A DNA stretch of 64,000 nucleotides from Candidatus Xenobium occultum (GCA_002423485.1 DIWH01000081.1:11612-75611); one strand, 5' to 3'; positions 24,675-45,748 are shown, numbered from the stretch's first letter. A program made the numbers and translations. The notes: generated by a model from the letters alone, not told the origin.

Positions 24675-25850
24675 TCAGGAGGTGGTGAGGAGCTTCTCGA
24701 CCTCGACCAGCTCTGGAGTGCCCCGGATTCCCGCCAGGATGGCCCCGAATTCCTTGCGGAACAGGACCCGCCCCCGTCCGTCTGCCAGGAGGATCCCGTC
24801 CCGGGCCTGGATTCGGATTCCCGCACGCCCCAGAGCGTCGAGCAGGCCGGGAAGATCCCGGTACCAGGCGTGACAGATGGCCCCATAGTCCTGGTTGATT
24901 TCCCGGAAGGCCCGCCGCAGGTTCGGGTGGGCGAGCAGGTTGGTGAAGAGTTGGGGGTCCTGCCGTCTGACCCAGGCCATCCAGGCCAGGATGTAGCCTC
25001 GGAACTCGGGCCAGGCCACCACCGTGGCGTCGGCATCGGCCAGGCGGGTCACCCAATCGCAGCCGCTTCCGGAGGGGCGATGGACCAGGTCCCGCACCAG
25101 GTCCAGTCCGGTGCGGGTTCCCGCGTGGTAGGCCGCGAACTCGTCCAGCAACCCGAAGATTCCGAATTTCTGGGTCGTCATGTTGGGATCCGGAGAGTCG
25201 ATGTAGGTCGCAAAGCGTTGAGCGTTCTTCAGGAAGGAGGGAAACGAGTCCGCCGCCTGGCGGGAGGAGGGGGTGGGCCGACCGCGGAGGACGAGGGTGT
25301 GACCTGGACGGAGGATGAGTCCGATGCTGCCAGGGTGGGCCAAAGCCTCGGGGTCGTTCCGGGTGGCCAGGACCCGGGTCAGGAAGTGGCAGGATTCGTG
25401 GACCATCACCGAGGCCGCGCTGACCAGTCGGCTCTTGGGCTGGTTGCGCACGAAGGCCCCGGCGTCCCAGGGCCCGAATCGGACCTCCCCGATGGACTGC
25501 GGAATGACGCCGGCATCGGCCAGCGCCTGGGCCATGACCCAGACACCCAAGGGGCTGGCCCTCTGGAGGTGCGTCAGGACTTCCTCCAGCGAGAGGTTGG
25601 CTTCCCGGGCCGCCACCGGGACCGCCAGTGACAGGCCGAAGGCTCCCAATACCCCCAGAAGGCGGCGGCGGGTCAGCAAGAGGGACGAATCCGGTCGGGC
25701 CAAGGCCAGCACCTCCTCTGCTCTCGATTCACCGGGCAGGAGGCGGCTCCTTTGCCCCTCGGGGGGCTTCGAGGGATCCCGCCGTCGAAAGCGAAGCGAT
25801 CCTGCCAGTGACCCGAATCGAGACCAGGGACCAGGGCGACCTGACGCCAC
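24675..25850 (-). CDS. Hypothetical Tat-secreted protein with HExxH motif
   Basis: Twin-arginine-like TRRRLLGVLGAFGLSLAVPVAA. VMVHESCHFLT HExxH motif. No confident family assignment. Confidence 0.5.
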   Translation of the reverse strand: MASGRPGPWSRFGSLAGSLRFRRRDPSKPPEGQRSRLLPGESRAEEVLALARPDSSLLLTRRRLLGVLGAFGLSLAVPVAAREANLSLEEVLTHLQRASPLGVWVMAQALADAGVIPQSIGEVRFGPWDAGAFVRNQPKSRLVSAASVMVHESCHFLTRVLATRNDPEALAHPGSIGLILRPGHTLVLRGRPTPSSRQAADSFPSFLKNAQRFATYIDSPDPNMTTQKFGIFGLLDEFAAYHAGTRTGLDLVRDLVHRPSGSGCDWVTRLADADATVVAWPEFRGYILAWMAWVRRQDPQLFTNLLAHPNLRRAFREINQDYGAICHAWYRDLPGLLDALGRAGIRIQARDGILLADGRGRVLFRKEFGAILAGIRGTPELVEVEKLLTTS

Positions 25851-25983
25851 AGCCTGGTCCGCCCCGCGCCTTGGCGGTGGCGGAAGCCATCGTCGGTCAA
25901 CTCTACCTCGTCTCGGTGGTGGCCGTTGCCGTCAGCCGCCTGGGCGAGGAGTCTCCTCGGACCTGAACCGGCGGGGCGAGGGC

Positions 25984-27054
25984 TCAGAACAAGAGCAGGT
26001 GGTTGGTGGCCAGGCCCAGCAGCAGGAGCAGGACTCCCAACCCCAGGCAGACCAGGAAGAGTCCCGCCACCATCGTCTCGGTGTCGGCTCGGGCTCGCCG
26101 ACGCAGGTCGCCTGCCGTCTGGGCCAACAGGTCCGGAAGCCGGCCCTCGTCCTCGCCCTGCCCGATCTGCTCGAGGATTTCTTCCGGGAAGAAGTCGACC
26201 GAGCCCAGGACATCCAGGACCGAGGCGCCCCAGCCGAGTTGGCTGGCGGACTGGAGCAGGTGTGACTCGTAGTGCAGGCTTCCCGTGCATCGGGCGGCCA
26301 GTTGGGCCGCCTGGGGCAGGGAGAGGCCGGAGGCCAGAAGCGAACTCAGCACCTCCAGGAAGCGGACGCCCACCTGCAGGCGCAGCGCCCGCCCGAACGT
26401 GCTGGTCCGGGCCAGCAGCCCCTCCAGCAGCGAACGCAGGGGGCGCCAGGAATACAGGACCCGCAGCGCAAGTCCCAGCACCACGAGCAGGCCCAACGCA
26501 GCCGCCAATGTTCCCAGGACGGCGATCAGCCACTTCTGAAGACCCTGGCGAAAAATCAGCGGAACCAGGGCCAGCATGACCACTCCACCCGACCAGATCA
26601 AGGGCCAGCGGAGTTGGTGCTGCAGGGCCTGGCGAAGGGCCAAGGTCTCCTTCAATGAGTCCGCCAGGACTCGCAACTGGCTGTCCAGGGTGCCTGATTC
26701 CTCGCCGGCCCGGACCATGCTGGTTTCATACGCTCCGAAGGTTCCCGGGAATCGCGTCATCGATTCGGACAGGCTCTGCCCGGAGACGATTCCTTGCGCC
26801 AGCCCCGGCGCCTGTCGAGGAAGGGTCTCCCGCCCGGCCTCCTCGACGGCGGTGGCGATCGATTCACCTGTCTCCAGACGGGTCCGCAGGGCCTCCAGGA
26901 AGGCGATTCGGGCGGGGAGAGGAGACTCGAAGAGGAAGTCCCGAAGGCGCTCGGCCCAGGAGGCTGAGGTCGCCGGGCAGGCTCCGGTCGGCGTGGCCGT
27001 GGGGTCGGGGACTTCCACGTCGGCCGCCCTCCAGCGCTCCTCTTCTTCGGCCAT
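25984..27054 (-). CDS. Type II secretion / type IV pilus platform protein, GspF/PilC family (short, 356 aa)
   Basis: Two T2SSF-like cytoplasmic domains (SGQSLSESMTRFPGTF...VRAGEESGTL) separated by TM helices, plus a C-terminal TM. Confidence 0.7.
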   Translation of the reverse strand: MAEEEERWRAADVEVPDPTATPTGACPATSASWAERLRDFLFESPLPARIAFLEALRTRLETGESIATAVEEAGRETLPRQAPGLAQGIVSGQSLSESMTRFPGTFGAYETSMVRAGEESGTLDSQLRVLADSLKETLALRQALQHQLRWPLIWSGGVVMLALVPLIFRQGLQKWLIAVLGTLAAALGLLVVLGLALRVLYSWRPLRSLLEGLLARTSTFGRALRLQVGVRFLEVLSSLLASGLSLPQAAQLAARCTGSLHYESHLLQSASQLGWGASVLDVLGSVDFFPEEILEQIGQGEDEGRLPDLLAQTAGDLRRRARADTETMVAGLFLVCLGLGVLLLLLGLATNHLLLF

Positions 27055-27069
27055 GATCTCCAGGGGAAC

Positions 27070-27354
27070 TCAGCGCAGGTACACCTCGCCGCCCAGGATG
27101 ATCAGGTCACGAGGTCCCAGGGAGGCCCCCTGAGGGATGGACTGGCCGTTGACCAGGGTGGTGCTGTTCACCGTCAGGCTCTGCAGGACCGGGACCCGGC
27201 CGATCCAGTGCAGGCTGGCATGCAGGCGCGAGACGGCCGTGCTCTCCAGGACGATGTCGCAGTGGGCGGCGCGACCGATCAGGGTGCGCTTCCCGGTCAC
27301 CTGATAGCGGGCCGCCGGCCGGCCATCTCCCAGCAGTTCCAGAATTCCCATCAC
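27070..27354 (-). CDS. FHA domain protein (94 aa)
   Basis: FHA signature RTLIGRAAHCDIVLESTAVSRLHASL...NGQSI. Confidence 0.75.
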   Translation of the reverse strand: MMGILELLGDGRPAARYQVTGKRTLIGRAAHCDIVLESTAVSRLHASLHWIGRVPVLQSLTVNSTTLVNGQSIPQGASLGPRDLIILGGEVYLR

Positions 27355-27698
27355 ATTGAAGTCTGCCGGCCGGCCTGTTGGTCGGGTTCAAGCCGACGGT
27401 ATTCGGCCAACAGGCTTCCCCTCTGGATTCGGGCACCCGGGGACAGGCGGGTCCGACCGCTGGCCGGCACGCCGTCCACCCGCACCGGGTTGGTGAAGGA
27501 ACGGTTGGAGATTTCGAAGGCTCCAGCCTCTTCGCACCAGTCCAGGACGGCGTGCACGCGCGAAACCGAGGGGTCCTCGAACTCCAGGGTGTTCTCCAGG
27601 CCTGAGCCCGGGCGCCCCAGAACCACCTGAGGACCTTGCAGGGGATGGACCTGCCCGGTATCCCGCCCCTCCAGGATGACCAGTTGGTGTGTGCTCAT
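27351..27698 (-). CDS. FHA domain protein (115 aa)
   Basis: FHA signature VVLGRPGSG...DPSVSRVHAVL...NPVRVDG. ATGA overlap with downstream FHA gene. Confidence 0.75.
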   Translation of the reverse strand: MSTHQLVILEGRDTGQVHPLQGPQVVLGRPGSGLENTLEFEDPSVSRVHAVLDWCEEAGAFEISNRSFTNPVRVDGVPASGRTRLSPGARIQRGSLLAEYRRLEPDQQAGRQTSM

Positions 27699-34005: not shown

Positions 34006-34779
34006 TCAGGTGCGCAGGCCGACCCCTCTGGCCAGCAGGAGCAGGTTCAGCGCCACCAGGGCTCCGGCCAGGCCCATCAGCGTGACCAGGCCGATCCAGG
34101 TGGGGATGTCCGAGGCCCCCAGGAAGCCGAAGCGGAAGCCGTTGACCATGTAGAGGATCGGGTTGAGGCGGGAAAGGGCGCGCCAGATCGGGGGCAGCAG
34201 GCTGATCGAGTAGAAGACGCCCCCGAAGTAGGTCAGGGGGGTCAGGATGAAGGTCGGAACGATCGAGATGTCGTCGAAGCGTCGGGCGATGAGCGCGTTG
34301 CTGAATCCGGCCAGGGCGAAGACCAGGGAGGTCAGGACCAGGAAGGCCATCACGATGGCCAGGTTGTGGAACCGGACGGGGTGGAAGGCCAGCGAGACCA
34401 GCAGGACCAGGAAACCCACCAGGATCCCGCGCAGCATACCCCCGCCGACGTAGCCGGCCACCATGATCCAGTCGGGGACCGGGGCCACCTGCAACTCCTC
34501 GACGCTGCGCTGGAAGCGGGCGTTGAAGAAGGACGAGGCCACGTTCGAGAAGGAGTTGGTGATCACCGACATCATCACCAGTCCGGGGACGATGAACTCG
34601 ATGTAGCTGAAGCCGTCGATCCGCTGGATTCGCGGGCCCAGAAGGCTTCCAAAGACCACGAAGTAGATGCCCATGGTGATGACCGGGGGCAGCAGGGTCT
34701 GCATCCAGATCCTCAGGAAGCGCCCCACCTCCCGGTGCAGGAGGGTGGCCAGGGCGATCCACAGTCTTCGGGCGTTCAC
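34006..34779 (-). CDS. ABC-2 type transporter permease
   Basis: Six TM, ABC-2 family features. ATGA overlap with ATPase. Confidence 0.75.
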   Translation of the reverse strand: MNARRLWIALATLLHREVGRFLRIWMQTLLPPVITMGIYFVVFGSLLGPRIQRIDGFSYIEFIVPGLVMMSVITNSFSNVASSFFNARFQRSVEELQVAPVPDWIMVAGYVGGGMLRGILVGFLVLLVSLAFHPVRFHNLAIVMAFLVLTSLVFALAGFSNALIARRFDDISIVPTFILTPLTYFGGVFYSISLLPPIWRALSRLNPILYMVNGFRFGFLGASDIPTWIGLVTLMGLAGALVALNLLLLARGVGLRT

Positions 34780-35696
34780 AGGCGGCCTCGGCCGACCAGG
34801 TGCAGGAAGAGCTCCTCCAGGCGGTTGGACTTGTTCCTCAGGCTGATCACCTCCACGCCACGGGCCTCCAGGGCTGCGAAGACCTGGTTCAGCGTCAGCC
34901 CCTCGGGCACGTCGATCTCCAGGCGGTTGGGGTCGATCTGGCGGATCTGGAAACCCGAGGGCAGTTGCTCGAGCGTCGTGGCTGCGGCCAGATCCAGGAC
35001 GAAGGTCTGCACCTCCAGGCGGCGGACCAGGTCCTGGATGGGGCCCTGTTCGAGGATCTTCCCGTGGTCGATGATGGCCAGGTTCCGACAGAGTTTTTCG
35101 GCTTCTTCAAGATAGTGCGTGGTCAGGATGATGGTGGTGCCCTTCTGGTTGAGCTCCGTCAGGATCTCCCACAGGCCCCGCCGCAGTTCGATGTCCACCC
35201 CCGCAGTGGGTTCATCGAGGATCAACAACCGAGGAGAGTTGACCAGGGCGCGGGCCACCATCAGACGGCGCTTCATCCCCCCGGACAGGTGTTGGGCGAT
35301 CTGGTTCATCGGGTCGCCCAGGCCCAGGCGCTCCAGCAACTCCTGGGCCCGGGGCAGGGCTTCGGTGCGGGGGATGCCGTACAGGCCTGCCTGGAAGACC
35401 AGGATCTCCAAGGTCTTTTCGAACACGTTGAAGTTGAATTCCTGAGGCACCACGCCCATCAGAGCCCTTGCCCTCTCGGGGTGGGCTCGGGCATCCACCC
35501 CGAAGACGTGGATCTCTCCTGCGGTGGGGCGGACCAGGTTGGTCAGGATTCCGATCAGGGTCGATTTCCCGGCGCCGTTCGGACCCAGAAGGGCATAGAA
35601 GTCCCCCTCCTCCACGTCCAGGTCGACCCCACGAAGGGCTTCGAGCCCGCCAGAGTAGGTCTTGGAGAGGTTGCGGATGGAAAGTGCTGTGTTCAT
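34776..35696 (-). CDS. ABC transporter ATP-binding protein (ABC-2 / DrrA-NodI-type)
   Basis: Walker A GPNGAGKST, signature LSGGMKRR, Walker B ILDEPTAGVD. Start trimmed to ATG 35696. Confidence 0.85.
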   Translation of the reverse strand: MNTALSIRNLSKTYSGGLEALRGVDLDVEEGDFYALLGPNGAGKSTLIGILTNLVRPTAGEIHVFGVDARAHPERARALMGVVPQEFNFNVFEKTLEILVFQAGLYGIPRTEALPRAQELLERLGLGDPMNQIAQHLSGGMKRRLMVARALVNSPRLLILDEPTAGVDIELRRGLWEILTELNQKGTTIILTTHYLEEAEKLCRNLAIIDHGKILEQGPIQDLVRRLEVQTFVLDLAAATTLEQLPSGFQIRQIDPNRLEIDVPEGLTLNQVFAALEARGVEVISLRNKSNRLEELFLHLVGRGRL

Positions 35697-35736: not shown

Positions 35737-37542
35737 TCAGGAGACGGGGACCGGTTCGTCTTCGGCGGCCAGTGGGGAGGAGGTGCCCAGGGCATCCCCC
35801 AGGGCGTGCAGGTCGTGCCCCTTCAGGCTTTCGACCTCCACGGTCACGACGCGCAGGACCTCCTCGAGGGTGGTCCAACCCATGCTGATCTTCTCCAGTC
35901 CGTCGTCCAGCAGGGTGCGGATCCCCTCCGACGCGGCAGCACGGGAGATCCGGCGCTGGGAGGACTTGCGGAGGATCTGCTGTTTGATCCGGCCGGTCAT
36001 CGGCAGGACCTCGTACAGGCCCAGCCTTCCCGAGAATCCGGTCATTCCGCACTTCTGGCAGCCCTTGCCACGGAAGTAGGAGGTGGGCAGGGGGTGGTCG
36101 GAGGCCAGGCGCAAAAACTCCAGGCGTTCCTTGGCTGGAGTGGTCTCCTCGCGACAGTGTTCGCAGATTCTCCGGACCAGCCGCTGGGCCACCACCGCCA
36201 GAAGGGAAGAGGCCACCAGATAGGGGACGATCCCCATGTGCCGGAGGCGCGTCAGGGTGGCCGGGGCCGAGTTCGTGTGCACGGTGGACAGCACGAAGTG
36301 ACCGGTCTGGGCAGCCTGGAAGGCGATTTCAGCCGTCTCCAGGTCGCGGATCTCGCCGACCATGACGATGTCGGGGTCCTGGCGCAGGATCGAGCGCAGG
36401 GCCGAGGCAAAGGTCACCCCGGCCTTGTGGTTGACCTGGAGCTGGTTGACCCCGGGCAACTGGAATTCGATCGGGTCCTCGACGGTGACGATGTTGTCCG
36501 AGACCCGGTTGCGGACGTTCAGGGTGGCGTACAGGGTGGTCGTCTTGCCGGAACCGGTCGGACCGGTGATCAGGATCATGCCCTGGGGGTTCTCGACCAG
36601 GTTCTGGTAGAGGACCAGATGGTCGGGCAGCATGCCCAGCCCCGCAAGCTGCAGCAGTCCCACGTTCTTGTCCAGGATGCGCAGGACCGCCTTCTCTCCG
36701 TAATAGGTGGGCAGGGTGCTGACCCGCAGGTCCACCCAGCGTTGGCTGAGCCGAACCCGGCTGCGGCCATCCTGGGGACGCCGCCGCTCTGAGATGTCCA
36801 TCCCGGAAGCCAGCTTGATTCGCGAGATGACCGCGTTCTGGATGGCCTTGGGCAATTCGGCCATGGTGCGGAGCACCCCGTCCACCCGGTAGCGGACCCG
36901 CAGGTTGTTCTCGGTGGGCTCGACGTGGATGTCCGAGGCCTTGATCTCGATGGCCTCGACGATCAAGGCGTTGACCAGTTGGATGATCGGGGCGTCGTGT
37001 TCTCCGAGGGTTCCTTCCTTGGGGGCCTCTTCGGTCTCTTCGTCGGGCATGACGAAAAGCTCGACCTCGGCCCCGGATCGGGTCGTCCCGAAGCGGTCCA
37101 GGGCCTCGGTCATCGCGGCGGCGCGGCCCTTGATGGCCTCCTGGATGTCGCCTCGGGGGGCCACCACCCTCTCGATGGGCCGCGAGGTGTGCATGCTGAC
37201 CACGTCTTCGGCCGTGACGTCGAAGGGATCGGCCATGGCCAGGCGCAGCCTGCCATCCGGGGTCTCGCCCAGGGGGACCACGCAGAAGTTGCTGGCCACC
37301 TCGGTGGGCAGCATGGCCAGGGCCTCGGGCCGGACGTCTCCAGGGCGGATTCGCAGGAAGGGGACGCGATAGAGGTCCGCCATGAAGGCGGCCAGGGTGA
37401 TCTCATCGATCAGTCCGCCCTCCACCAGGGCCTGCGCGATGGACATGCGCGAGTAGCGCGGGTCCTGCAGCACGGCTCGGATGGCCTCGGGTCGCACCAG
37501 GCCGGCCTCGAACAGGCTGGCCAGGAGATCCTTGCGCTCCAT
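35737..37542 (-). CDS. Type IV pilus assembly ATPase PilB / GspE family
   Basis: N-terminal GspE_N domain, Walker A GPTGSGKTTT, Asp/His boxes, tetracysteine CEHC...CQKCGMTG. ATG 37542 with GGGAGG RBS. Confidence 0.85.
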   Translation of the reverse strand: MERKDLLASLFEAGLVRPEAIRAVLQDPRYSRMSIAQALVEGGLIDEITLAAFMADLYRVPFLRIRPGDVRPEALAMLPTEVASNFCVVPLGETPDGRLRLAMADPFDVTAEDVVSMHTSRPIERVVAPRGDIQEAIKGRAAAMTEALDRFGTTRSGAEVELFVMPDEETEEAPKEGTLGEHDAPIIQLVNALIVEAIEIKASDIHVEPTENNLRVRYRVDGVLRTMAELPKAIQNAVISRIKLASGMDISERRRPQDGRSRVRLSQRWVDLRVSTLPTYYGEKAVLRILDKNVGLLQLAGLGMLPDHLVLYQNLVENPQGMILITGPTGSGKTTTLYATLNVRNRVSDNIVTVEDPIEFQLPGVNQLQVNHKAGVTFASALRSILRQDPDIVMVGEIRDLETAEIAFQAAQTGHFVLSTVHTNSAPATLTRLRHMGIVPYLVASSLLAVVAQRLVRRICEHCREETTPAKERLEFLRLASDHPLPTSYFRGKGCQKCGMTGFSGRLGLYEVLPMTGRIKQQILRKSSQRRISRAAASEGIRTLLDDGLEKISMGWTTLEEVLRVVTVEVESLKGHDLHALGDALGTSSPLAAEDEPVPVS

Positions 37543-37543
37543 T

Positions 37544-39313
37544 CTACCTCCCTGCGGCAGGCCGGGTTGGATGCCCACCGACCGGCACGACGACCAGATT
37601 CTCCGAGCCCGCCGCGACCGGCATGGTGGCCAGGACCTCGCCTCGCGAGGGGTCGAGGACCAGGACGCAGGAAGGGAACCCGCCCAGGGCCCAGATCAGT
37701 GGGCTTCGGGGTCCGCTGGCCACTGCCTTCCAGGTCTGCAAAGGAAGCTGCATGTTGGCCGAACGGGTGTCGACGGCTTCGATTCGGGCCTGGGCATCGA
37801 CAGCCCACAGGGTGTTCCCGGCGCGCAGGAGGCGCACGGCGGGATGCCTCAGGGGCCAGGTCTCGATTTTCTGGAGGGTCAGCGCGTCCCGGATCTCCAC
37901 CTCGGGCCGGGTCCGGTGGGCGACGTACAGCCTTCGGCCCCCCGGCGAGACGGCCAAGGCACCCGCTTCCGGCGCGGCGGCCCGGGCCACCAATCGCGTG
38001 GGCCGCAACCCCATCACCGTGAGGTTCCCGGCACTGGCCAGGTACAGGACCGGGGTGCTCTTGTCCCCGTTTCGGTGTCGACCGAAGGCGATCTCCACGG
38101 GAGAGGCGTCGAAGGCCACCAGGGCTTCGGAGCGGGCCGGCAGTCGGCCGGGGAGCAACCTGCGGGGTTGCAGGTCGACCACCGTCAGGATCGAGCGCTG
38201 GGGGTGGACCACGAAGAGCATGTCCCCCTCGGGGGTGATCTCCAGTTCCCGAGGGTCCGAATCCAGGACCATCTGCCCCCGGATTCGGCCCTGGCGGACG
38301 TCCAGCAGCACCAGTCGACCGGCCTGGGGTTGGGTGGCGTAGAGCAGGTCGCCGTCCGGAGAAACTGCCAGGTCTCCGGCAGGCTCTTCCAGGGGCATCC
38401 GGGACAAGGTCTGTCCGGTCGCAAGCGCGTGGAACTCGACGCCGCGGCCTTGTCCCAGGGCCACGGCCGCCTCCAGCACCGGGCGGGGGGCCGGGCGGGT
38501 TGCCCACCAGGTCAGGCCCGCCAGCACGCTCAGCACGAGCATCAAGCCCAGCACCGCGGGCCATCGGGAAGGCCGGGCGGGAGGCGAGGACACGGGTGGC
38601 AGGCTGGAAGAGGCCCGTCGGTCCCGGACGACGTGGGCGGGCTTGTCGCTGATCGGTCGCTCCAGGGCTTCCGCCATCTCGCTGAAGCTGCGGTAGGACC
38701 TGGCGGGGTCGGCGCCCTGGCAGCGGGCGGCCAGCCACAGGAATTCCCCCGCGGCGGCGTCCGGCGAGAGTTGACCCAGGGTGAAGACGAGATCTCTCAT
38801 GGCCTCGGCCATGCGGGTGCCCTCGTCGGCGTTGGCTTCGGCCTGGCGGCTCAGGCCCAGGGCGCGCAGGCGCAGGTTCCCCTCGGGGGTGAGCCACAGG
38901 TCCGCCGGGTCCAGACGGATCGGAAGCCGCCCGCCCGAGTCCCGGTGCAGCAGGTCCAGGCCGTGGCACAACCGCGAGAGGACCCGGGCCACCCGGGCCA
39001 CCGACCAGGGTGTCCAGGAAGGACCCAGGGCCTGGGACAGGGGATGCCCCGGGCCGGGGTGCTGGGCCACCAGATAGCGCCCTTCCAGGAGGGTGGCCTC
39101 CAGCAGGATCGGCAAGCCGGGGTGGGAGGAGCGGGCCAGGCGGTGCAACTGGTCCTTCAGGCTGGGGACTTCGGCGACCACCTCGACCACACAGGGTTGC
39201 CCCTGCCCATCGACTGCGTCCAGGAGGGCCGGACCGGTTTCGGGGAGTGGTTCTCGGAGCCGGATCCGGCCCTCGCACAGGGTCAGAAGCGGGTGGACGG
39301 TGACCTGGGTCAT
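37544..39313 (-). CDS. Membrane-anchored Ser/Thr protein kinase-like pseudokinase with extracytoplasmic YVTN-type beta-propeller
   Basis: Hanks-kinase-like N-domain retaining HRD (LLHRDSGG) but lacking the Gly-loop and VAIK lysine (VVEVV); DFG replaced by ALG. One TM (WPAVLGLMLVLSVLAGLTWW). C-terminal repeats SPDGDLLYAT / SPGGRRLYVA. Confidence 0.6.
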   Translation of the reverse strand: MTQVTVHPLLTLCEGRIRLREPLPETGPALLDAVDGQGQPCVVEVVAEVPSLKDQLHRLARSSHPGLPILLEATLLEGRYLVAQHPGPGHPLSQALGPSWTPWSVARVARVLSRLCHGLDLLHRDSGGRLPIRLDPADLWLTPEGNLRLRALGLSRQAEANADEGTRMAEAMRDLVFTLGQLSPDAAAGEFLWLAARCQGADPARSYRSFSEMAEALERPISDKPAHVVRDRRASSSLPPVSSPPARPSRWPAVLGLMLVLSVLAGLTWWATRPAPRPVLEAAVALGQGRGVEFHALATGQTLSRMPLEEPAGDLAVSPDGDLLYATQPQAGRLVLLDVRQGRIRGQMVLDSDPRELEITPEGDMLFVVHPQRSILTVVDLQPRRLLPGRLPARSEALVAFDASPVEIAFGRHRNGDKSTPVLYLASAGNLTVMGLRPTRLVARAAAPEAGALAVSPGGRRLYVAHRTRPEVEIRDALTLQKIETWPLRHPAVRLLRAGNTLWAVDAQARIEAVDTRSANMQLPLQTWKAVASGPRSPLIWALGGFPSCVLVLDPSRGEVLATMPVAAGSENLVVVPVGGHPTRPAAGR

Positions 39314-39320
39314 GGTCTCG

Positions 39321-40571
39321 CTAGATCCGCTGCCAGGAGGCGACGTTCAGGGCCCCTCCCCCGGCGCCTCCGCCGAAGAAGGCCTCGAAGCCGGGCACGG
39401 GCTCCTGCTGCAGGGTGCTGGTGATGCGGGCTCCGCTGTGCACGAACTCGCCATCGCCGTAGGCGATCACCCGACCCACCAGGGTGAAGGCCGCGTTGGA
39501 GTAGATGCTGCCCTGGCAGAAGATCAGCCCTTCCAGGGTGGTGGACCGGTTGAACTCGACCCGGCCGCCTCCCACGGTGCCGTTCTGTCCGTCCAGGACC
39601 ACGATATCCAGTTTGTGGTTCAGGGGGGTGTTGAAGATGGCCGAGTTGGCGTTGCCCACCACGATGGTGCCCGTCCCGACCGGCGAGGTCTTGAAGGTGA
39701 CGCCGTTGGGGTAGTAGTGGACCTTCCCGTCCAGGTCGGTGCCGTCGTAGAGGGTCTCGTTGTGGGTCACCGCGCCGGCCAGCAGGGTGGCGGGGTCGGG
39801 GTTGGGCATGACTTCTCGTCCCGCCGGGGGATCATTGGTCAGCCTGCCGTCCGCGATGAAGGGCTCGGTGGCCGCCGAGGTGTCGTTGGGCACGATCTGG
39901 GCGGCATCCTGGATCTTGTCCTGGCCGGTGATGCTGCCCCGGGCCCGAACTTCCTGGCCCGGGCCCATGTTCAGTTGGGCCTGGACGGTGAGGTTGCCGG
40001 AGGTCAAGAGGTGCCCTTCGCCGCCGATCGGCTCGACCGAGACCCGGGCGCTCAGGACCAGGTCCCCGTTGCTCTTGACGGTGCCGTAGACCACCCCGGC
40101 GGCCCCCAGGTCGACGGTTCCGCCGGAGGAGATCGTGTAGTTGTATCCGGCCGGCTGGCCTTCCAGGAAGACCGCGACCTGACGAGAGAAGCTTCCGTTC
40201 TGGCTGGTGCCGGTGGAGAGCAGGTAGATCATGCCGGGAGGGACGCTGACCCCTCCTGGTCCGTTGAGGGCGGTGGCTCCCCCCGAGTTGTTGGTGACCT
40301 GGACGGAGTATTTCTGGTCCTGCTCGCCTCCCAGGGCCACATCGGTGAACCCCGCGCTCCAGCCGGTGTCGGCCGCAACCTGGTTCAGGGCCGCATGGAT
40401 GCCGGCCTCGGCCGACTGGACGGCCGCCACCGAAGCGAGGTTGGCCTGGATCATCCTGGAGTGGCGGGCGCCGATGGCCACCACGGCCACCAGGAAGACC
40501 AGCAGCAGGGCCAGGACCAGAAGCAGGATGGCGAGGGCGGAACCTCGAGCCGGGCGAAGCTTGATCAACAT
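39321..40571 (-). CDS. Type IV pilus assembly protein PilX-like minor pseudopilin
   Basis: PilX_N-like N-terminus (RGSALAILLLVLALLLVFLVAVVAIGARHSRMIQANLASVAAVQSAEAG). ATG 40571 with GAGGAGG RBS. Large Gly/Thr/Asn-rich C-domain. Confidence 0.6.
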   Translation of the reverse strand: MLIKLRPARGSALAILLLVLALLLVFLVAVVAIGARHSRMIQANLASVAAVQSAEAGIHAALNQVAADTGWSAGFTDVALGGEQDQKYSVQVTNNSGGATALNGPGGVSVPPGMIYLLSTGTSQNGSFSRQVAVFLEGQPAGYNYTISSGGTVDLGAAGVVYGTVKSNGDLVLSARVSVEPIGGEGHLLTSGNLTVQAQLNMGPGQEVRARGSITGQDKIQDAAQIVPNDTSAATEPFIADGRLTNDPPAGREVMPNPDPATLLAGAVTHNETLYDGTDLDGKVHYYPNGVTFKTSPVGTGTIVVGNANSAIFNTPLNHKLDIVVLDGQNGTVGGGRVEFNRSTTLEGLIFCQGSIYSNAAFTLVGRVIAYGDGEFVHSGARITSTLQQEPVPGFEAFFGGGAGGGALNVASWQRI

Positions 40572-40614
40572 CTGAAACGACCTCCTCGTTGGGGCATGGG
40601 CTCCCAATGCCTGG

Positions 40615-41190
40615 TCACTTGCGGAACCAGACGCGGTCGGTCACCTGCACCGAGGTCCGTCCCCACAGGTCGTTGGCGGCCACCAGCGCCACATCGGTGG
40701 TGGAGGTTCCCGAAAGGAAGCCCAGGGACTCGATGTGCGTGGCCACCAGCTTGTGGGTCGCGTTGCTGTCGGCTCGGACCTGGCTCGAGGTCGGGATCGG
40801 GGCCGGCAGCTCGGCGGTCTCCGAGAAGGCCTGTCGGCTGCGCATCAACCCCTGATCCGTCAGGTGGAAGGCCACCCAGGCTTGCCACAGGGCCCGCCCG
40901 CTGTCGTCGTAGCGGACCGTCCCGGAGACGTCCCGGGCCGAGGGGAGGACCACGGCGTTGGTCTCGAAGCGCACGCCGGCCCGCGGGGCGCTGGCCAACT
41001 CTTCGGTGACCTCGCGCAGGCCGGTCATGGCCTGGTGCTGCACCGTGGCGAAGTTCTCGGTCCTCCGGTAGGCGTCCAGGCCCATGGCCAGGCTGGCGTA
41101 GATGGTCCCCAGGATGAAGAGGAAGAGGGTCCCCCCGATCAGGACCTCGATCAGGGTGGCTCCCTGGCGTTCAGCGGAGACGCGCCACAT
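40615..41190 (-). CDS. Prepilin-type N-terminal cleavage/methylation domain protein (minor pilin/pseudopilin)
   Basis: Class III signal: leader ending in G, then ATLIEVLIGGTLF with Glu at +5. Confidence 0.7.
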   Translation of the reverse strand: MWRVSAERQGATLIEVLIGGTLFLFILGTIYASLAMGLDAYRRTENFATVQHQAMTGLREVTEELASAPRAGVRFETNAVVLPSARDVSGTVRYDDSGRALWQAWVAFHLTDQGLMRSRQAFSETAELPAPIPTSSQVRADSNATHKLVATHIESLGFLSGTSTTDVALVAANDLWGRTSVQVTDRVWFRK

Positions 41191-41563
41191 CGGTCAACAC
41201 CTCCACGTGTCGAGCCCGTTCGCCGGCCCAGGAGACCAGGACTCGGACCCGCTTGAGATCGGTCTGGGGTTCACTGACCTGGGTCTGGACCGAGAAGTCC
41301 AGGGTCGACTCGATGCCCTGGTTGGTGGTCGAGACCTGGACGGTGTGGAGGTCGTCCTCCACGTCTTCGAAGTCCTGGCTTCGCACTTCTTCCAGGCGGC
41401 GTTCAGCCAGGAAGGTCGCACTCATGTAATCCTGGCCTTGCCGGACCGCGCGAGCCGCGGTGGGGAAGGCGGTCAAGAGCATGACGAAGGCGACGGCGAA
41501 AACCCCGACTGCGATGAGCAGTTCCAGCAAGGACATGCCTGAAGAGCTGGTTTGGGATCGCAT
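41171..41563 (-). CDS. Prepilin-type N-terminal cleavage/methylation domain protein (pilin-like, 130 aa)
   Basis: MRSQTSSSG | MSLLELLIAVGVFAVAF gives the canonical G/MxLLE prepilin motif. Start trimmed to ATG 41563. The 262-aa ORF is over-extended. Confidence 0.7.
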   Translation of the reverse strand: MRSQTSSSGMSLLELLIAVGVFAVAFVMLLTAFPTAARAVRQGQDYMSATFLAERRLEEVRSQDFEDVEDDLHTVQVSTTNQGIESTLDFSVQTQVSEPQTDLKRVRVLVSWAGERARHVEVLTDVARLR

Positions 41564-41601
41564 GATCGCGCGGGACGGTCCCGCTTGCCCCCTTTCAACC
41601 C

Positions 41602-41656
41602 CTGTGTGTCCACAGTATTCCCCAACCTGGTCGGTTTCAATGATCTGGGTTGAACC
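41602..41656. promoter_or_regulatory. Inverted repeats in the divergent pilin/pilT promoter region (candidate operator sites)
   Basis: CTGTG-tgtc-CACAG at 41602-41615 and GGTTTCAA-n8-TTGAACC at 41633-41656, in a 250-bp lower-GC intergenic region. Confidence 0.3.
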
Positions 41657-41814
41657 GATCTCGCCTTGCAGTCGAATCCATCGTGAATACCCGTGTCGAC
41701 AGGGGGCTTCGGCTGCTCTTCGCGGGCGCTTATGACCTTCATCATTGTTCGTCGGGCTGTCCCTGAAGGATGCTGGAGTGGTCTTCAGCGCATGAGTCGG
41801 GAGGGAGGGCACCC

Positions 41815-42897
41815 ATGTCAGAAGATTTGACCCCGCCGGACCTGTTGGAACTGCTCCGCACGGCACTGGATCACGAGGCCTCGGACCTGCATCTGGTGCG
41901 CGGGGCCCCGCCGAGCCTTCGGGTGGATGGCCGGATCCAGCGATTGCCAGGGCCCCCATTGCGGGCCTCCGACATCGAGACCCTGGTGGCCCCGGTTCTG
42001 AACGAGCGTCTGGCCCGCCGCCTGGAGCGAGCCCGGGACGTCGATTTCTCCTTCGAAGAGCCGGGCCTGGGCCGCTTCCGGACCAGCCTCTTCTACGAAC
42101 GCGGATCCCTGGCCGCCGCCTTCCGGGTGGTCCCCTGGAGCGTCCGCTCGGTGGAGGAGTTGGGGCTGCCCAGCGTGGTGAACGACCTGGTCATGCGGAA
42201 TGCCGGCCTGGTCCTGATCACGGGGGCGGTGGGGATGGGCAAGACCACCACCCTGAACACCATGATCGACCTGATCAACTCCGAGCGGCCCGTCCGGATC
42301 CTCACCATCGAGGATCCCATCGAGTTCATCCACACCCACAAGACAGGTCTGGTCTTGCAGCGGGAGATCCGGGGAGACGCCCGGAGCTTCCACCGCGCCC
42401 TGGTCGCGACGCTGCGTCAGGACCCCAACGTGATCTGCATCGGCGAGATGCGGGACTGGAGGACGGTGGCCACGGCCCTGACCGCCGCCGAGACGGGGCA
42501 CCTGGTGATCAGCACCTTGCATACCCAGGACACCGTCCACACCCTGGAGCGCATCGTCGACGTCTTCCCTCCCCATCAGCAGGGGCAGATTCGCTATCAG
42601 TTGGCCTCCGTGCTGCAGGCGGTCCTGTGCCAGAAGCTGCTGTTGAGGGTTTCAGGCAGGGGGCGGGTCCTGGCTTACGAGGTCATGATCGGCACCCTGG
42701 CCATGCGCCGGTTGATCCGCGAGAACAAGACCGACCAGATCCCGACGCTTCTGCAGACCGGGCGCGAGACCGGCATGATCTCGATGGACCAGTGCATCAA
42801 GAACCTCTACCTCGCCCGCAGCATCGGGTACGACGTGGCCCGAGCCGCCTTCAGCGACCCCGAGCACTTCAAAGAGCCTCAGTGGGAGCTGACTTGA
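41815..42897 (+). CDS. pilT: Type IV pilus retraction ATPase PilT
   Basis: ITGAVGMGKTTT Walker A, ILTIEDPIEF, IGEMRD, AHxxxTGHLVISTLHT PilT hallmarks. ATG 41815 with GGGAGGGAGGG RBS. Confidence 0.9.
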   Translation: MSEDLTPPDLLELLRTALDHEASDLHLVRGAPPSLRVDGRIQRLPGPPLRASDIETLVAPVLNERLARRLERARDVDFSFEEPGLGRFRTSLFYERGSLAAAFRVVPWSVRSVEELGLPSVVNDLVMRNAGLVLITGAVGMGKTTTLNTMIDLINSERPVRILTIEDPIEFIHTHKTGLVLQREIRGDARSFHRALVATLRQDPNVICIGEMRDWRTVATALTAAETGHLVISTLHTQDTVHTLERIVDVFPPHQQGQIRYQLASVLQAVLCQKLLLRVSGRGRVLAYEVMIGTLAMRRLIRENKTDQIPTLLQTGRETGMISMDQCIKNLYLARSIGYDVARAAFSDPEHFKEPQWELT

Positions 42898-43595
42898 GAA
42901 TTGCGGAACTGTTCCAGCCACTCGGTGGCGTCGGTCTGGGTCAGGGCCTGGAGGACCTGCAGGTCGGGTAGGGTCATGGTCCCATCGGCGCTCTCGATCA
43001 GATAGCCTTTGCGCCGGAATCGGCTGAAGATCCGGATGGCGGTCTCGGTGGTGGTTCCGATCATCTCGGCGAAGCCTTGTCGGTCCAGGGGGAGGCGCAG
43101 ACGCAGGCCACAAGGGTGCATCTGGCCCAGTCGGGCGGCCAGGTTCAGAAGGGCCCGGGCCGCCCGCTGGTCGGCGCTCTCCACGGCCAGGCCGACCGCC
43201 ATTTCTCGTTGCAGTTGCATCTTCTCGCGGCAGACGGCCGTGGCCTTGAGCAACAGTCCGGGGTGGCGCAGGGCCGCCTCGTGGAACCGCGCCCGCTGGA
43301 CGAACCCCGCTTCGACCTCCTCCAGGCAGACGGCGCTCAGGCTGTAGGGGGTGCACTCCGCGGTGCACAGGGCCCCACAGAAATCGCCCGGGAAGAGCAG
43401 CTCCATGATGACATCCCGACCGTGACAACTGGATTGGACCAGCTTCAGCGACCCGGTCACGATCAGGAAGAGACCCTCGGGGAGGTCTCCCTGCCGGAAC
43501 AGGGCGGCGCCGCGAGGGACACGCCGGGTCGTCAACAGGCCCTGCAGGGAATCCCTCTCTTCGGCAGTCAGTTGCGAGTAGAATCCGACTTTCAT
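42879..43595 (-). CDS. Crp/Fnr family transcriptional regulator
   Basis: cNMP-binding domain (FRQGDLPEGLFLIVTGSLKL) and C-terminal HTH (RQGFAEMIGTTTETAIRIFSRFRRKGYL). Start trimmed to ATG 43595. Confidence 0.8.
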   Translation of the reverse strand: MKVGFYSQLTAEERDSLQGLLTTRRVPRGAALFRQGDLPEGLFLIVTGSLKLVQSSCHGRDVIMELLFPGDFCGALCTAECTPYSLSAVCLEEVEAGFVQRARFHEAALRHPGLLLKATAVCREKMQLQREMAVGLAVESADQRAARALLNLAARLGQMHPCGLRLRLPLDRQGFAEMIGTTTETAIRIFSRFRRKGYLIESADGTMTLPDLQVLQALTQTDATEWLEQFRNSQVSSH

Positions 43596-43798
43596 CAAGT
43601 CCCCGGGGTTCCAGGGCCCCCTGGCTGAAGAGTCGGAGCCTTCCGTCGGGCGCCCCCCGCAGGGGGCCCTCGGGGCAGCGCCGCAGGGCAGTCTTCTCCG
43701 CCCGGCGGGGTCCATTCCTGTCACGCGAGACCCAGGCTCCTGGCCGCGGCCTCCCTGGGACCGTCCGAGCATGGGAAGGCGGACCAGGTTCTTGAAGG

Positions 43799-44260
43799 TC
43801 AGGTCCCCTCGCGCTTCGACTGGCCCCGGATCAACAGCAACGGGCAGAGGATCCGGCGCATGACCTTGGAGGCCACGCTGCCGTGCACCCAGCGGTCAAA
43901 GCCACCACGGCCGTGGGTGCACATGACCACCAGGTCGGCCTCGTCGATCTCGGCCTGGTCGACGATGGCGCTGGCCGCATCGTCCAGGCGGTGGATGGCC
44001 TTGCAGGTGACTCCGTCGGCCTCCAGGCGCTGCTTCCAGTCCTCGAGGTACTGCCGGATCGTCTCCTGCTCGGTCTCACGGTAGCGCTCCATGTAGGCGG
44101 CAGCGGTCAGATCCGGGAGGGCGTAGACCCTGTCCGGCAAGGCCGTCGCGCGCAGGAGCGTGATCTCGGCCCCATACTTCTTGGCCAGGTCCAGGGCGTG
44201 GGGAACGGCCCGCTCGGAGAGTTCCGACCCGTCCAGGGGAACCAGGATCCTGGAATACAT
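43799..44260 (-). CDS. Universal stress protein (single UspA domain)
   Basis: ILVPLDGSELSERA...VMCTHGRGG...GSVASKV. ATG 44260 with GGAGGTGAG RBS. The 689-aa ORF is an artefact. Confidence 0.85.
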   Translation of the reverse strand: MYSRILVPLDGSELSERAVPHALDLAKKYGAEITLLRATALPDRVYALPDLTAAAYMERYRETEQETIRQYLEDWKQRLEADGVTCKAIHRLDDAASAIVDQAEIDEADLVVMCTHGRGGFDRWVHGSVASKVMRRILCPLLLIRGQSKREGT

Positions 44261-44353
44261 GCGGCTCACCTCCAGATCCAGTCTTCCCGGCCCCGGGAGG
44301 GGCCGCATGGTCAGTATACCCGCTCCCGCCAGGAACAGAAATGACTGTCCGGG

Positions 44354-44443
44354 GACGCCCGAGGACCCCCTTGATCCTGGAGGATCCTCGGGCGTCTCCG
44401 GAGAACTGCCGGATGCTTCCCAGTGATTCAAGATTCTTGATTG
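44354..44443. promoter_or_regulatory. 12-bp-arm inverted repeat and an AT-rich near-palindrome in the divergent uspA / ftsA-like promoter region
   Basis: gacgcccgagga...tcctcgggcgtc (44354-44396) and GATTCAAGATTCTTGATTG (44425-44443), 50-70 nt upstream of the ftsA-like start. Confidence 0.35.
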
Positions 44444-44494
44444 TGGCGACGGCTTTGGGAGGGGGTTCCCTCCCTGGCGGATCGGAGTTCCCGG

Positions 44495-45748
44495 ATGGCC
44501 AGACTTGAAACCCTTACCGCGCTGGATGTCGGGACCAGCAAGGTCGTTTGCCTCATCGCCGAGCTGGATCGGAAGGGAGACCTCGAGGTGGTCGCCCGTG
44601 GCGTCCAGCCTTGCTGTGGTCTGCGTCGCGGGGCCCTGGTGGACGCTGAGGAGACGGTTCGGGCCATCGAGGCCGCCGTGTCGGAGGCTGAGAAGGAGGC
44701 CGGCTATCCCGTGGGGCCGGCCCTGGTCAACCTGAGCAGCGAGTTCTTGACCTCGCGGCCCAGTCACGGCGTCTGGCCCGTGGGCAACACCGAAGGAGAG
44801 ATCACCCCGGACGACGTTCGTCGGGTGGTCGAGGCCGCCCGCCAGGTCGGCATCCCTTCGGATCGGGAGATCGTGCACGCGATTCCGCGCGGCTTCACCG
44901 TGGACGGGCAAAGGGAGATTTGCAACCCGGTCGGCCTCTCGGGTCTGCGCCTGGAGGCGGACGCCCATGTGATCGCCGGCTCCTCCGCCTTCCTGCAGAA
45001 CATCCGCAAGGTCGTGCAGAGGGCGGGAGTCGAGATCCACCCGGAGGGCATGGTCGCCTCCTCGATCGCCTCGTCGTTGGCCGTCCTGACCGATGAGGAA
45101 CGCGACCTGGGCACCGCCCTGCTGGACATGGGCCTGGGGACCGTCGACTTCTCGGTCTACTGCGGAGGGGAGATCGGTCACTCGGCCGTCCTTCCGATCG
45201 GGGGCGAGTACCTGGTGCAGGACGTCTCCCGTTTCTTCCGGATTCCTCCCATGGAGGTCGAGCGGTTGATCCTGGAGGCCGGGATCGCTTCCCCCGAATT
45301 CCTCGAGGAGGCCGAAGGAGAAGAGCAGATGCTGGAGGCTCCGCCGGTCTCGGGGGACGGGGTCGTCCAGATCTCGCGGCGCGAGCTCTCGGAGGTTCTT
45401 GAAGCCCGCATCCAGGACATCTTTGAGTGGGTGGGCGACCAGATTCAGTTCGCGCGCCGCAAGCTGGGCCTGACGGTCACCAGCCTGGTCCTGACGGGAG
45501 GCGTCTCGCAGTTGCCGGGCATGGCCCTGGTGGCCCACCGGGAGGTGGAACTCCCCACCCGCGTCGCGGCCCCTTGCTACCCTCCCGGACTGCCCTTGAA
45601 CCTGGCCTCGCCGGTCTACGCGACAGCCGTCGGGCTGGTCCTGTACGGGGCCACCCGGATCCACCGCCAGGAGGGCACGGCGCCCCACGTCTCGCCGGTC
45701 CGCGCCTTCTTCGAGCGGGTCCACCGCATCCTGATCCAGGTCTTCTGA
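44495..45748 (+). CDS. ftsA: FtsA-like actin-family ATPase (cell division protein FtsA homolog; not next to ftsZ)
   Basis: ALDVGTSKVVCLIAEL phosphate-1 motif, FtsA/SHS2 organisation, amphipathic C-terminus. Next gene is nrdR, not ftsZ. Confidence 0.7.
   Translation: MARLETLTALDVGTSKVVCLIAELDRKGDLEVVARGVQPCCGLRRGALVDAEETVRAIEAAVSEAEKEAGYPVGPALVNLSSEFLTSRPSHGVWPVGNTEGEITPDDVRRVVEAARQVGIPSDREIVHAIPRGFTVDGQREICNPVGLSGLRLEADAHVIAGSSAFLQNIRKVVQRAGVEIHPEGMVASSIASSLAVLTDEERDLGTALLDMGLGTVDFSVYCGGEIGHSAVLPIGGEYLVQDVSRFFRIPPMEVERLILEAGIASPEFLEEAEGEEQMLEAPPVSGDGVVQISRRELSEVLEARIQDIFEWVGDQIQFARRKLGLTVTSLVLTGGVSQLPGMALVAHREVELPTRVAAPCYPPGLPLNLASPVYATAVGLVLYGATRIHRQEGTAPHVSPVRAFFERVHRILIQVF

Follow-up and report, generated by a model that had tools for sequence, protein, structure and literature searches.

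Type IV filament machines are thought to be built from a small set of conserved parts, and how the motor is coupled to the pilins is still debated. Among the closest described systems are GspL (EpsL/PulL) and PilM-PilN; the gspL gene comes after gspI-J-K. The bitopic protein GspL binds the GspE ATPase through its cytoplasmic domain (PMC3815138); works cited in that paper describe the GspL-type cytoplasmic domain as an unusual actin-like ATPase fold and propose EpsL as the coupler of the ATPase to the pseudopilins. PilY1 is a beta-propeller protein that is encoded with the minor pilins beside pilX and helps to prime pilus assembly (PMC7541494, PMC5979040). PknD of M. tuberculosis joins a Hanks-type kinase domain through a single transmembrane (TM) helix to an extracytoplasmic beta-propeller (PMC1847690), and MviN/MurJ (Rv3910) is a membrane protein with a cytoplasmic pseudokinase domain whose activation loop is attenuated (kinase atlas, 10.1101/2025.01.12.632604). 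Here we analyse a 64,000-nucleotide stretch of DNA from Candidatus Xenobium occultum (GCA_002423485.1 DIWH01000081.1:11612-75611; hereafter the window) and in it a protein of 589 amino acids (aa), encoded at 37544-39313 on the minus strand, which we name PsK: a pseudokinase, a TM helix and a propeller are predicted in one polypeptide, and its gene lies in a pilus operon. We propose, with a probability of roughly one half, that PsK may be a dedicated non-catalytic accessory subunit, serving in coupling or as a scaffold, of a lineage-specific retractile type IV pilus.

The pil operon (35737-41563, minus strand) consists of five genes, which an initial annotation made from the sequence of the window had placed correctly on one strand:

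41171..41563, minus strand: prepilin 1, 130 aa, a GspI/PilV-like minor pilin with the leader MRSQTSSSG/MSLLELL (motif scan; the slash marks the cleavage site)
40615..41190, minus strand: prepilin 2, 191 aa, ERQG/ATLIEVL (motif scan)
39321..40571, minus strand: PilX-like large pseudopilin, 416 aa (longest open reading frame, ORF, 428 aa, to 40607), from gene calls and the family alignment
37544..39313, minus strand: PsK, pseudokinase-TM-propeller protein, from homologues, profile and structure prediction
35737..37542, minus strand: PilB extension ATPase, 601 aa, with an N-terminal MshEN domain (T2SSE E 3.6e-136, 454 bits; MshEN E 6.8e-17)

The prepilin genes share 20 nt, the pilX-like stop is followed after 7 nt by the PsK ATG, and 1 nt separates the PsK TAG from the pilB ATG. 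The close packing that had been claimed is real; its widest gap, of 43 nt, lies ahead of the called pilX-like start. The Shine-Dalgarno sequence of pilB, GGGAGG, sits within the last codons of the PsK gene, which together with the 1-nt and 7-nt junctions fits co-translation. A terminator-like site was sought on the minus strand within the operon and none was found. We judge the PsK ORF to be real from its GC content at third codon positions (0.86), its full-length homologues and its conserved synteny.

The evidence that carries our proposal is the place of PsK beside the pilin genes. In six lineages, and down to 28 % identity, PsK stays beside a PilX-like gene and mostly just ahead of pilB. 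The order pilin-pilin-PilX-PsK-PilB is found, whole or as far as the contig reaches, at the loci L003, L004 and L015 of the window clade, at L001/L002 (PsK 56-57 % identical to that of the window), at L014 (~35 %; PilX, PsK and PilB, with PilX and PilB cut by the contig ends), at L012 (~28 %; all five genes, contig-cut at PilB) and at L016 and L018 (28-30 %; all five genes, between different flanking genes). Close homologues, with PsK 50-100 % identical, share the entire region and so add little weight. The more distant members P0018, P0019 and P0024 came from an exhaustive search of representative proteins, and the genes for the 543- and 544-aa proteins of L016 and L018 came to light next to PilX-like homologues; these two proteins are recognized as PsK by the full-length PsK profile (E 3e-38 and 3e-44). 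Word-indexed homologue searches returned about 10 family members together with generic YVTN propellers. The neighbourhood search that had been suggested as a check thus finds pseudokinase and PilX/PilB genes together across diverged lineages, and this synteny makes a dedicated role of PsK in the pilus much more likely, as far as gene order can tell.

PsK is predicted to be divided into three parts:

38648..39274, minus strand: cytoplasmic pseudokinase domain, aa 14-222 (hhalign, profile search, AlphaFold2/Foldseek)
38501..38569, minus strand: single TM helix, aa ~249-271, WPAVLGLMLVLSVLAGLTWWA (AlphaFold2 helix 251-272)
37574..38476, minus strand: extracytoplasmic seven-bladed YVTN/lactonase-type beta-propeller, aa ~280-580 (Pfam, fold search)

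Ordinary family searches miss the kinase-like part. Pfam gave no Pkinase match, either at E<=0.01 with the entire sequence or at E<=10 with residues 1-235, nor did NCBIfam give one; the gathering threshold of Pkinase (PF00069) is not reached, the propeller accounts for all matches of PsK in both databases, and the precomputed Pfam entry of every family member is either empty or Lactonase (PF10282) alone. The kinase homology is therefore visible only through the family profile. Against the PDB, an eight-member PsK profile retrieved nearly exclusively kinases, weakly (StkP at E 0.017, PknA, STK10; all at E >= 0.017). Against 1.84 billion representative proteins, the N-terminal profile retrieved 1069 at E<=1e-3, and the best matches outside the family (E 2.5e-14 to 1e-9) bear strong Pfam Pkinase domains (E 1e-34 to 1e-123). 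When the PsK family was aligned by hhalign with ten such kinases, the probability was 98.9 % (E 1.8e-17) over 216 columns spanning both lobes. A first AlphaFold2 run on full-length PsK with 10 sequences gave the N-terminal half a predicted local distance difference test score (pLDDT) of 28-62 and could not alone demonstrate a kinase fold, and a run on residues 1-245 with a 41-sequence alignment that included kinases gave canonical kinase topology at pLDDT 87.8 and a predicted template modelling score of 0.82, with S. aureus PknB and M. tuberculosis PknA and PknI as the top Foldseek matches. Because its alignment held real kinases, this second model is corroboration and not an independent test. 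The profile comparisons, which bear out the Hanks-kinase-like domain claimed at the outset, show the apparent descent of the N-terminal domain from a Hanks-type Ser/Thr kinase. We also considered whether PsK derives from the active kinases that adjoin the operon in L016 and L018, and rejected this, since the PsK profile gives these kinases no higher scores than unrelated ones.

The motifs of catalysis were mapped by three alignments, made with HMMER, MAFFT and hhalign, which agree. The position of the Gly-loop GxGxxG reads LPETGPA (23-29). In place of the beta3 Lys stands Val45, invariant in the close homologues (A1/A2), and Lys is absent from this position throughout the family; Gln55 occupies the place of the alphaC Glu, where homologues have E, A or Q. 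The catalytic loop HRDxKPxN reads P131-I132-R133-L-D135-P-A-D138, with Asp138 at the position of the Asn, and no member of the family has Asp at the true HRD-Asp position, which is occupied by Arg, His, Gly, Pro or Ser. The DFG position reads A151-L152-G153, and among the members examined the DFG Asp is kept only in the distant P0019. In addition, about 27 residues of the activation loop and APE motif and about 30 residues around alphaG are deleted. The N-lobe is further eroded in the distant members: the P0018 sequence begins at beta3, P0024 is likewise affected, and in L016 the N-lobe is barely recognizable. Thus the losses of the Gly-loop, the VAIK lysine, the catalytic-loop residues and DFG reported in the initial annotation are all confirmed, and the catalytic lysine and Mg-binding residues, whose presence it had said would mark an active kinase, are gone in the alignments. 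Its statement that HRD is kept is wrong. The literal H123-R124-D125 aligns with the "LH..." that closes helix alphaE in related kinases (YLHxxxPPxIHRD), D125 varies among homologues (D/E/H/A), and on these alignments the triplet is a false friend and not the catalytic HRD; as HRD is not kept either, the pseudokinase call becomes stronger. None of the features expected of an active Hanks-type kinase (Gly-loop, the beta3 Lys/alphaC Glu pair, HRDxKxxN, DFG with activation segment and APE) is found in PsK, and the loss of the VAIK Lys, the HRD Asp or the DFG Asp in a domain with kinase homology defines a pseudokinase; here all three are lost. As read from these alignments, the domain counts as a pseudokinase under every usual definition, and binding of ATP would be very unlikely. 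What is invariant in the family lies in the C-lobe: LP.R., G.LRLR.LG and FLW..RC..DP.R.YRSF.EL..AL.

The C-terminal half of PsK exceeds the threshold of Pfam Lactonase (PF10282). Its best sequence match in the PDB is the archaeal S-layer YVTN propeller 1l0q (E 7e-12), which Foldseek also retrieves with the propeller model (E 1.3e-14), so that both the family hidden Markov model (HMM) and the fold assign it to the YVTN/lactonase seven-bladed propellers. The full-length model is confident for residues 283-516 and 546-576, and counting strands gives seven blades, the last two with lower confidence. The hydrophobic TM stretch is kept in all homologues, and neither an N-terminal signal peptide nor a prepilin cleavage motif is present in PsK; with no such signal peptide and with one TM helix, the protein would be oriented N-in, C-out, with the kinase-like domain in the cytoplasm and the propeller facing outward. 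The models show PsK as a bitopic membrane protein whose YVTN-type propeller has seven blades and lies on the outside of the cytoplasmic membrane. This agrees with the architecture first put forward, one TM helix between a kinase-like domain and an external YVTN/lactonase-type propeller, and the HMM searches and structure prediction then called for supply the blade number and a kinase fold that has lost catalysis.

From these findings, we suggest a possible mechanism for PsK as an accessory subunit. The propeller would bind the membrane-embedded priming complex of minor pilins, or a ligand presented to that complex; the dead kinase domain, mainly through its conserved C-lobe, would dock on PilB or on the PilC/FHA platform; and the motor could in this way become the site of pilus initiation or its gate. 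In each comparison conservation is higher in the dead kinase domain than in the propeller (66 vs 54, 39 vs 33, 32 vs 27 and 42 vs 32 %); selection therefore acts on this domain for a function that is not catalytic. A narrower version of this mechanism, which we regard as tentative and rather doubtful, would make PsK a non-homologous replacement of the GspL/PilM-PilN coupling subunit, whose C-lobe clamps PilB, and possibly FHA/PilC in a phospho-dependent manner, with the propeller holding a GspI/J/K-like priming complex. Like PsK, GspL is bitopic: a cytoplasmic domain of some 230 aa is linked through one TM helix to a domain in the periplasm, and the gspL gene comes after those of the minor pseudopilins, as the PsK gene comes after the PilX-like gene in the GspK position and beside the ATPase gene. 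There is no kinship in sequence or fold: GspL is actin-like inside and has a small ferredoxin-like domain outside, the corresponding parts of PsK are a kinase fold and a propeller of seven blades, and neither Pfam nor NCBIfam gives a GspL, PilM or PilN family match for PsK. The resemblance is thus one of topology and gene position only, and binding of PilB by PsK is a proposal by analogy. If it held, a kinase fold would have lost catalysis and been taken into a type IV filament machine as a structural part, and PsK would be the first pseudokinase known to be a core part of a bacterial filament-assembly nanomachine.

Several observations weigh against PsK as a subunit of the pilus. PsK is the fastest-evolving gene of the operon: between the window and L001 the identities are 80 and 66 % for the pilins, 64 % for PilX, 57 % for PsK, 87 % for PilB and 84 % for PilT, and between the window and L016 they are 30 % for PsK and 61 % for PilB (28-30 % and 60-61 % for L016/L018 overall). 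Its overall rate is nearer to that of the pilins than to that of the motor, and so large a distance from PilB is unexpected for a tight PilB partner; judged from these rates, a partner in the periplasm or on the side of the pilins, or a role in regulation, would fit better. The rearranged locus L013, with the order PsK, PilX/DUF4900, pilin, pilin, has no pilB beside PsK; here PsK stays with the pilins and therefore travels with the pilin set. In L017 (9001-14326) a related PilX-like gene and two candidate pilins occur with no PsK within 19 kb, so PsK is not obligatory for this pilin set. On the evidence of gene order, PsK is best described as a putative accessory that moves with this pilin set and not as its obligatory partner. 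The family is also small, with about 15 cluster representatives among billions of proteins, every member comes from uncultured organisms (metagenomes), and the confident model of the kinase domain rests on an alignment seeded with kinases, so that the fold is not established independently. L017 also has a GGDEF-EAL gene and a PilC gene nearby and offers a natural comparator without PsK.

One rival, which we consider possible though somewhat unlikely, takes PsK as a signal receptor or regulator, in which the propeller would sense a ligand outside the cell or in the periplasm and the pseudokinase would be an allosteric switch, or a docking site that an active kinase phosphorylates and FHA proteins read, with the activity of PilB or PilC tuned as a result. 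It draws on a second cluster of pilus genes on the same strand as the pil operon, which the initial annotation had overlooked:

25984..27698, minus strand: second pilus mini-cluster FHA, FHA, PilC/GspF-like, 9 kb from the pil operon
27351-27698, minus strand: FHA 1, 115 aa (Pfam FHA)
27070-27351, minus strand: FHA 2, 93 aa (Pfam FHA)
25984-27054, minus strand: PilC/GspF-like platform protein (T2SSF E 8.6e-25; GspF TIGR02120 E 3e-27)

The two single-domain FHA genes (Pfam E 1e-8 and 9e-12) overlap by 1-4 nt, depending on the start call, and lie directly upstream of the sequence-divergent PilC/GspF-like gene; their presence in the pilC operon suggests phospho-threonine-dependent control of the pilus platform. 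A mycobacterial precedent exists in MviN, PknB and FhaA: the MviN pseudokinase works as a phospho-dependent scaffold read by the FHA protein FhaA, a precedent reportedly set by Gee and colleagues in 2012. The pseudokinase domain of MviN differs from PsK in being attached to a lipid II flippase and in its control of cell-wall synthesis; FHA genes are found near pilC here. The receptor would also be consistent with the rapid evolution of PsK, which suits a sensor, and with its likeness in architecture to PknD-type sensors (PMC1847690). Furthermore, the surroundings of the PsK operon in L016 (1790-4060 and 14867-16858) and L018 (736-3024 and 13887-15863) include active Hanks kinases and a GGDEF protein, a few genes from pilB; the kinases are of ~760 aa with a Peripla_BP_6 sensor domain and of 422 aa, and are not particularly close relatives of PsK. 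Yet no Thr that could serve as a phosphosite for FHA binding is conserved in the linker or the domain over the family, the FHA genes were seen in the window clade only (L004, L008), with the distant contexts either too short to judge or without FHA, and the ORFs tested in the window included no active kinase. The tight spacing to pilB and the constant PilX-like neighbour look more like a stoichiometric part of a machine than like a receptor.

Less probable is a second rival, in which the propeller does the work and the remnant of the kinase is just a cytoplasmic anchor, so that PsK would be a membrane-tethered PilY1 analogue (a partner or chaperone of the tip complex formed by the minor pilins) or a YncE-like periplasmic receptor for DNA or another ligand, with a part in adhesion or the uptake of DNA. 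The PsK gene does adjoin a PilX-like gene, as pilY1 adjoins pilX (PMC7541494, PMC5979040), and in L013 it stays with the pilins without pilB. A relic, however, would not be better conserved than the propeller, as the pseudokinase domain is, and the permanent TM anchor, with no signal peptide or cleavage motif, means that travel to the tip would need cleavage of PsK. PilY1 is exported by a signal peptide, rides on the pilus tip and has a Neisseria_PilC propeller, with neither a TM anchor nor a kinase-like domain. The identification of PsK with PilY1 itself was rejected: PsK has no PilY1/Neisseria_PilC domain and no signal peptide, its fold matches are of YVTN/WD40 types, and no PilY1 structure is among the top ones. 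The closest matches of the C-terminal half in sequence and structure are the YVTN/lactonase propellers (1l0q, YncE 3vgz and the 6-phosphogluconolactonases), which are soluble, secreted or S-layer proteins, none of them, unlike PsK, fused to a pseudokinase or linked to a pilus.

It is highly improbable that the PsK gene is an unrelated passenger in the pilus operon. The absence of PsK from L017, despite the related PilX-like gene and the two candidate pilins there, would suit a passenger, as would the small weight of synteny among close relatives; its adjacency to the PilX-like gene nevertheless survives to 28 % identity while the other flanks change (L012, L014, L016/L018), it survives the rearrangement in L013, and junctions of 1 nt and 7 nt would not be expected of a passenger. 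Some supposed pseudokinases were later found to be active, but that PsK should be an active atypical kinase with non-canonical residues (compare WNK and CASK), phosphorylating pilus components, is scarcely credible, since the invariant Asp138 at the catalytic-loop Asn position and several conserved Arg nearby are set against the joint loss of Gly-loop, beta3 Lys and HRD Asp, the loss of the DFG Asp in all members examined but P0019, the two deletions, an alphaC Glu that is not conserved, the further decay of the N-lobe in P0018, P0024 and L016, and the lack of any Pkinase match in Pfam at E<=10.

The building blocks of PsK are known: the receptor-kinase architecture of PknD, bacterial pseudokinases such as MviN, and YVTN propellers. 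PknD is catalytically active and does not lie in a pilus locus, in both respects unlike PsK, and its propeller is of the six-bladed NHL type. A 2025 atlas of bacterial serine/threonine kinases (bSTK) defines seven pseudokinase families, CP1, DYD, ActPs1-3, DLHK and GLW (bioRxiv 10.1101/2025.01.12.632604). Compared by their descriptions only, these are Hanks-derived and lack the VAIK Lys, the HRD Asp and the DFG Asp, some with deletions of alphaG or the activation loop, as in PsK; they were defined among Pfam-Pkinase homologues, whereas PsK has no Pkinase match at E<=10. Pilus or propeller terms do not occur in the main text of the atlas (10.1101/2025.01.12.632604). Our searches of open-access full text turned up no pseudokinase or kinase-like part in type IV pili or type II secretion systems. 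In a 2024 review on the cofactors of PilB, the headings list second messengers (cyclic AMP, cyclic di-GMP), PilZ/FimX, CpiA and phage peptides, and the word "pseudokinase" is not in the text; this review and a literature without precedent agree with the view, taken at the outset, that a pseudokinase is not a standard component of type IV pili. What is new is the conserved PsK family, in a new functional context, and our results suggest that PsK is an undescribed accessory part of type IV pilus machines. In lineages without recognizable PilM/N/O or GspL/M, another kind of subunit might do the coupling or gating, and PsK is a concrete candidate for it; it also supplies a clear functional context, which is rare among bacterial pseudokinases.

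The remaining pilus genes of the window belong to a type IVa pilus, in view of the PilB-type ATPase, PilT, the two prepilin leaders and the T2SSF platform protein. Those upstream of the pil operon are:

41564..41814, strand not assigned: divergent intergenic region between the pil operon and pilT, 251 bp, presumed to hold the promoters
41815..42897, plus strand: PilT retraction ATPase, 360 aa (TIGR01420 416 bits, cut-off 319)
42879..43724, minus strand: Crp/Fnr-family regulator, convergent with pilT (cNMP_binding E 7.7e-17; HTH_Crp_2 E 6.2e-14)

With both PilB and PilT encoded, the system is probably a retractile, lineage-specific type IV pilus. The initial annotation was right that pilT diverges from the operon; the Crp/Fnr gene does not, being on the minus strand, and its synteny is kept in L001, L002 and L015. 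A scan of the intergenic region for the sigma-70 consensus gave no match. Two inverted repeats are seen there, CTGTG-N4-CACAG (41602-41615) and TTCAA-N9-TTGAA (41636-41654), which could be candidate sites for the neighbouring Crp/Fnr-type regulator, and the spacing of neither is that of canonical CRP or FNR sites.

Prepilin motifs of the form G/xxLxE occur only twice in the six frames of the whole window. Prepilin 1 matches N_methyl (E 0.0034), TIGR01707 GspI (E 1.3e-6) and PilV (E 5.7e-5) weakly, and also XpsI, all under the curated cut-offs. Public gene calls begin it at TTG 41530 and lose the leader together with the Gly of the cleavage site; the ATG at 41563 restores a canonical 130-aa prepilin, as called in L001. 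Prepilin 2 has no match in Pfam or NCBIfam, and its orthologues stand in the same position in L001, L002, L003, L012, L016 and L018. The PilX-like pseudopilin has a PilX-type hydrophobic N-terminus without Glu5; the protein of the window has no Pfam match, and its homologue in L013 matches DUF4900 (E 1.4e-6) and PilX_N (E 0.0017). A metagenome scan with the PilX-like alignment returned one locus only, which is near-identical. In L001 (8743-9977) the PilX-like gene of GCA_037975375.1 is split into ORFs of 252 and 159 aa, beside an intact PsK and pilB; this split is a frameshift, an assembly error or a pseudogene. PilB scores 611 bits against TIGR02538, under its equivalog cut-off of 675. Among the ORFs tested across the window there is no PilM/N/O/P/Q or PilD, and a major pilin was not found in the window; the initial annotation had listed these absences correctly, and its list of the machinery present was incomplete for want of the FHA-FHA-PilC cluster. 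An FtsA-like gene (44441-45748) was considered as a hidden PilM and rejected, as it scores 323 bits against TIGR01174 FtsA and 23.8 bits against PilM. This true ftsA (region 43799-45748) stands alone between a Usp gene and nrdR with no adjoining ftsZ, a layout kept in L001, L002 and L008. The PilC-like gene (cluster 24675-27698, minus strand) is followed by one whose 342-aa product has a Tat-like RRRLLG leader and matches no family.

The base composition of the window is 65-71 % GC, and metagenome contigs identical to it are JGI 3300002498 TOLCLC_10005265 and ENA ERZ27315036 k141_260953. The closest named genome is "bacterium UBP9_UBA1432", with a PsK identity of 87 %. UBP9 is treated as a basal, apparently anaerobic class of Candidatus Eremiobacterota (WPS-2), a phylum for which a diderm envelope has been inferred from genomes (PMC6664022). 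PsK would widen the repertoire of receptor-kinase architectures in this poorly studied phylum, through its class UBP9. Past the pilB stop, an ABC-2 transporter pair of ATPase and permease (34006-35696, minus strand) begins after about 40 nt on the same strand and may be co-transcribed with pilB; the pair lies behind pilB only in the window clade and L001/L002, and not in L016/L018. Elsewhere in the window, a Dam-like MethyltransfD12 gene (~18249-20296, plus strand) adjoins one whose 424-aa product carries the domains DUF6996, DUF6997, DUF7226 and AAA_assoc_C, and the two may form a restriction-modification or defence module.

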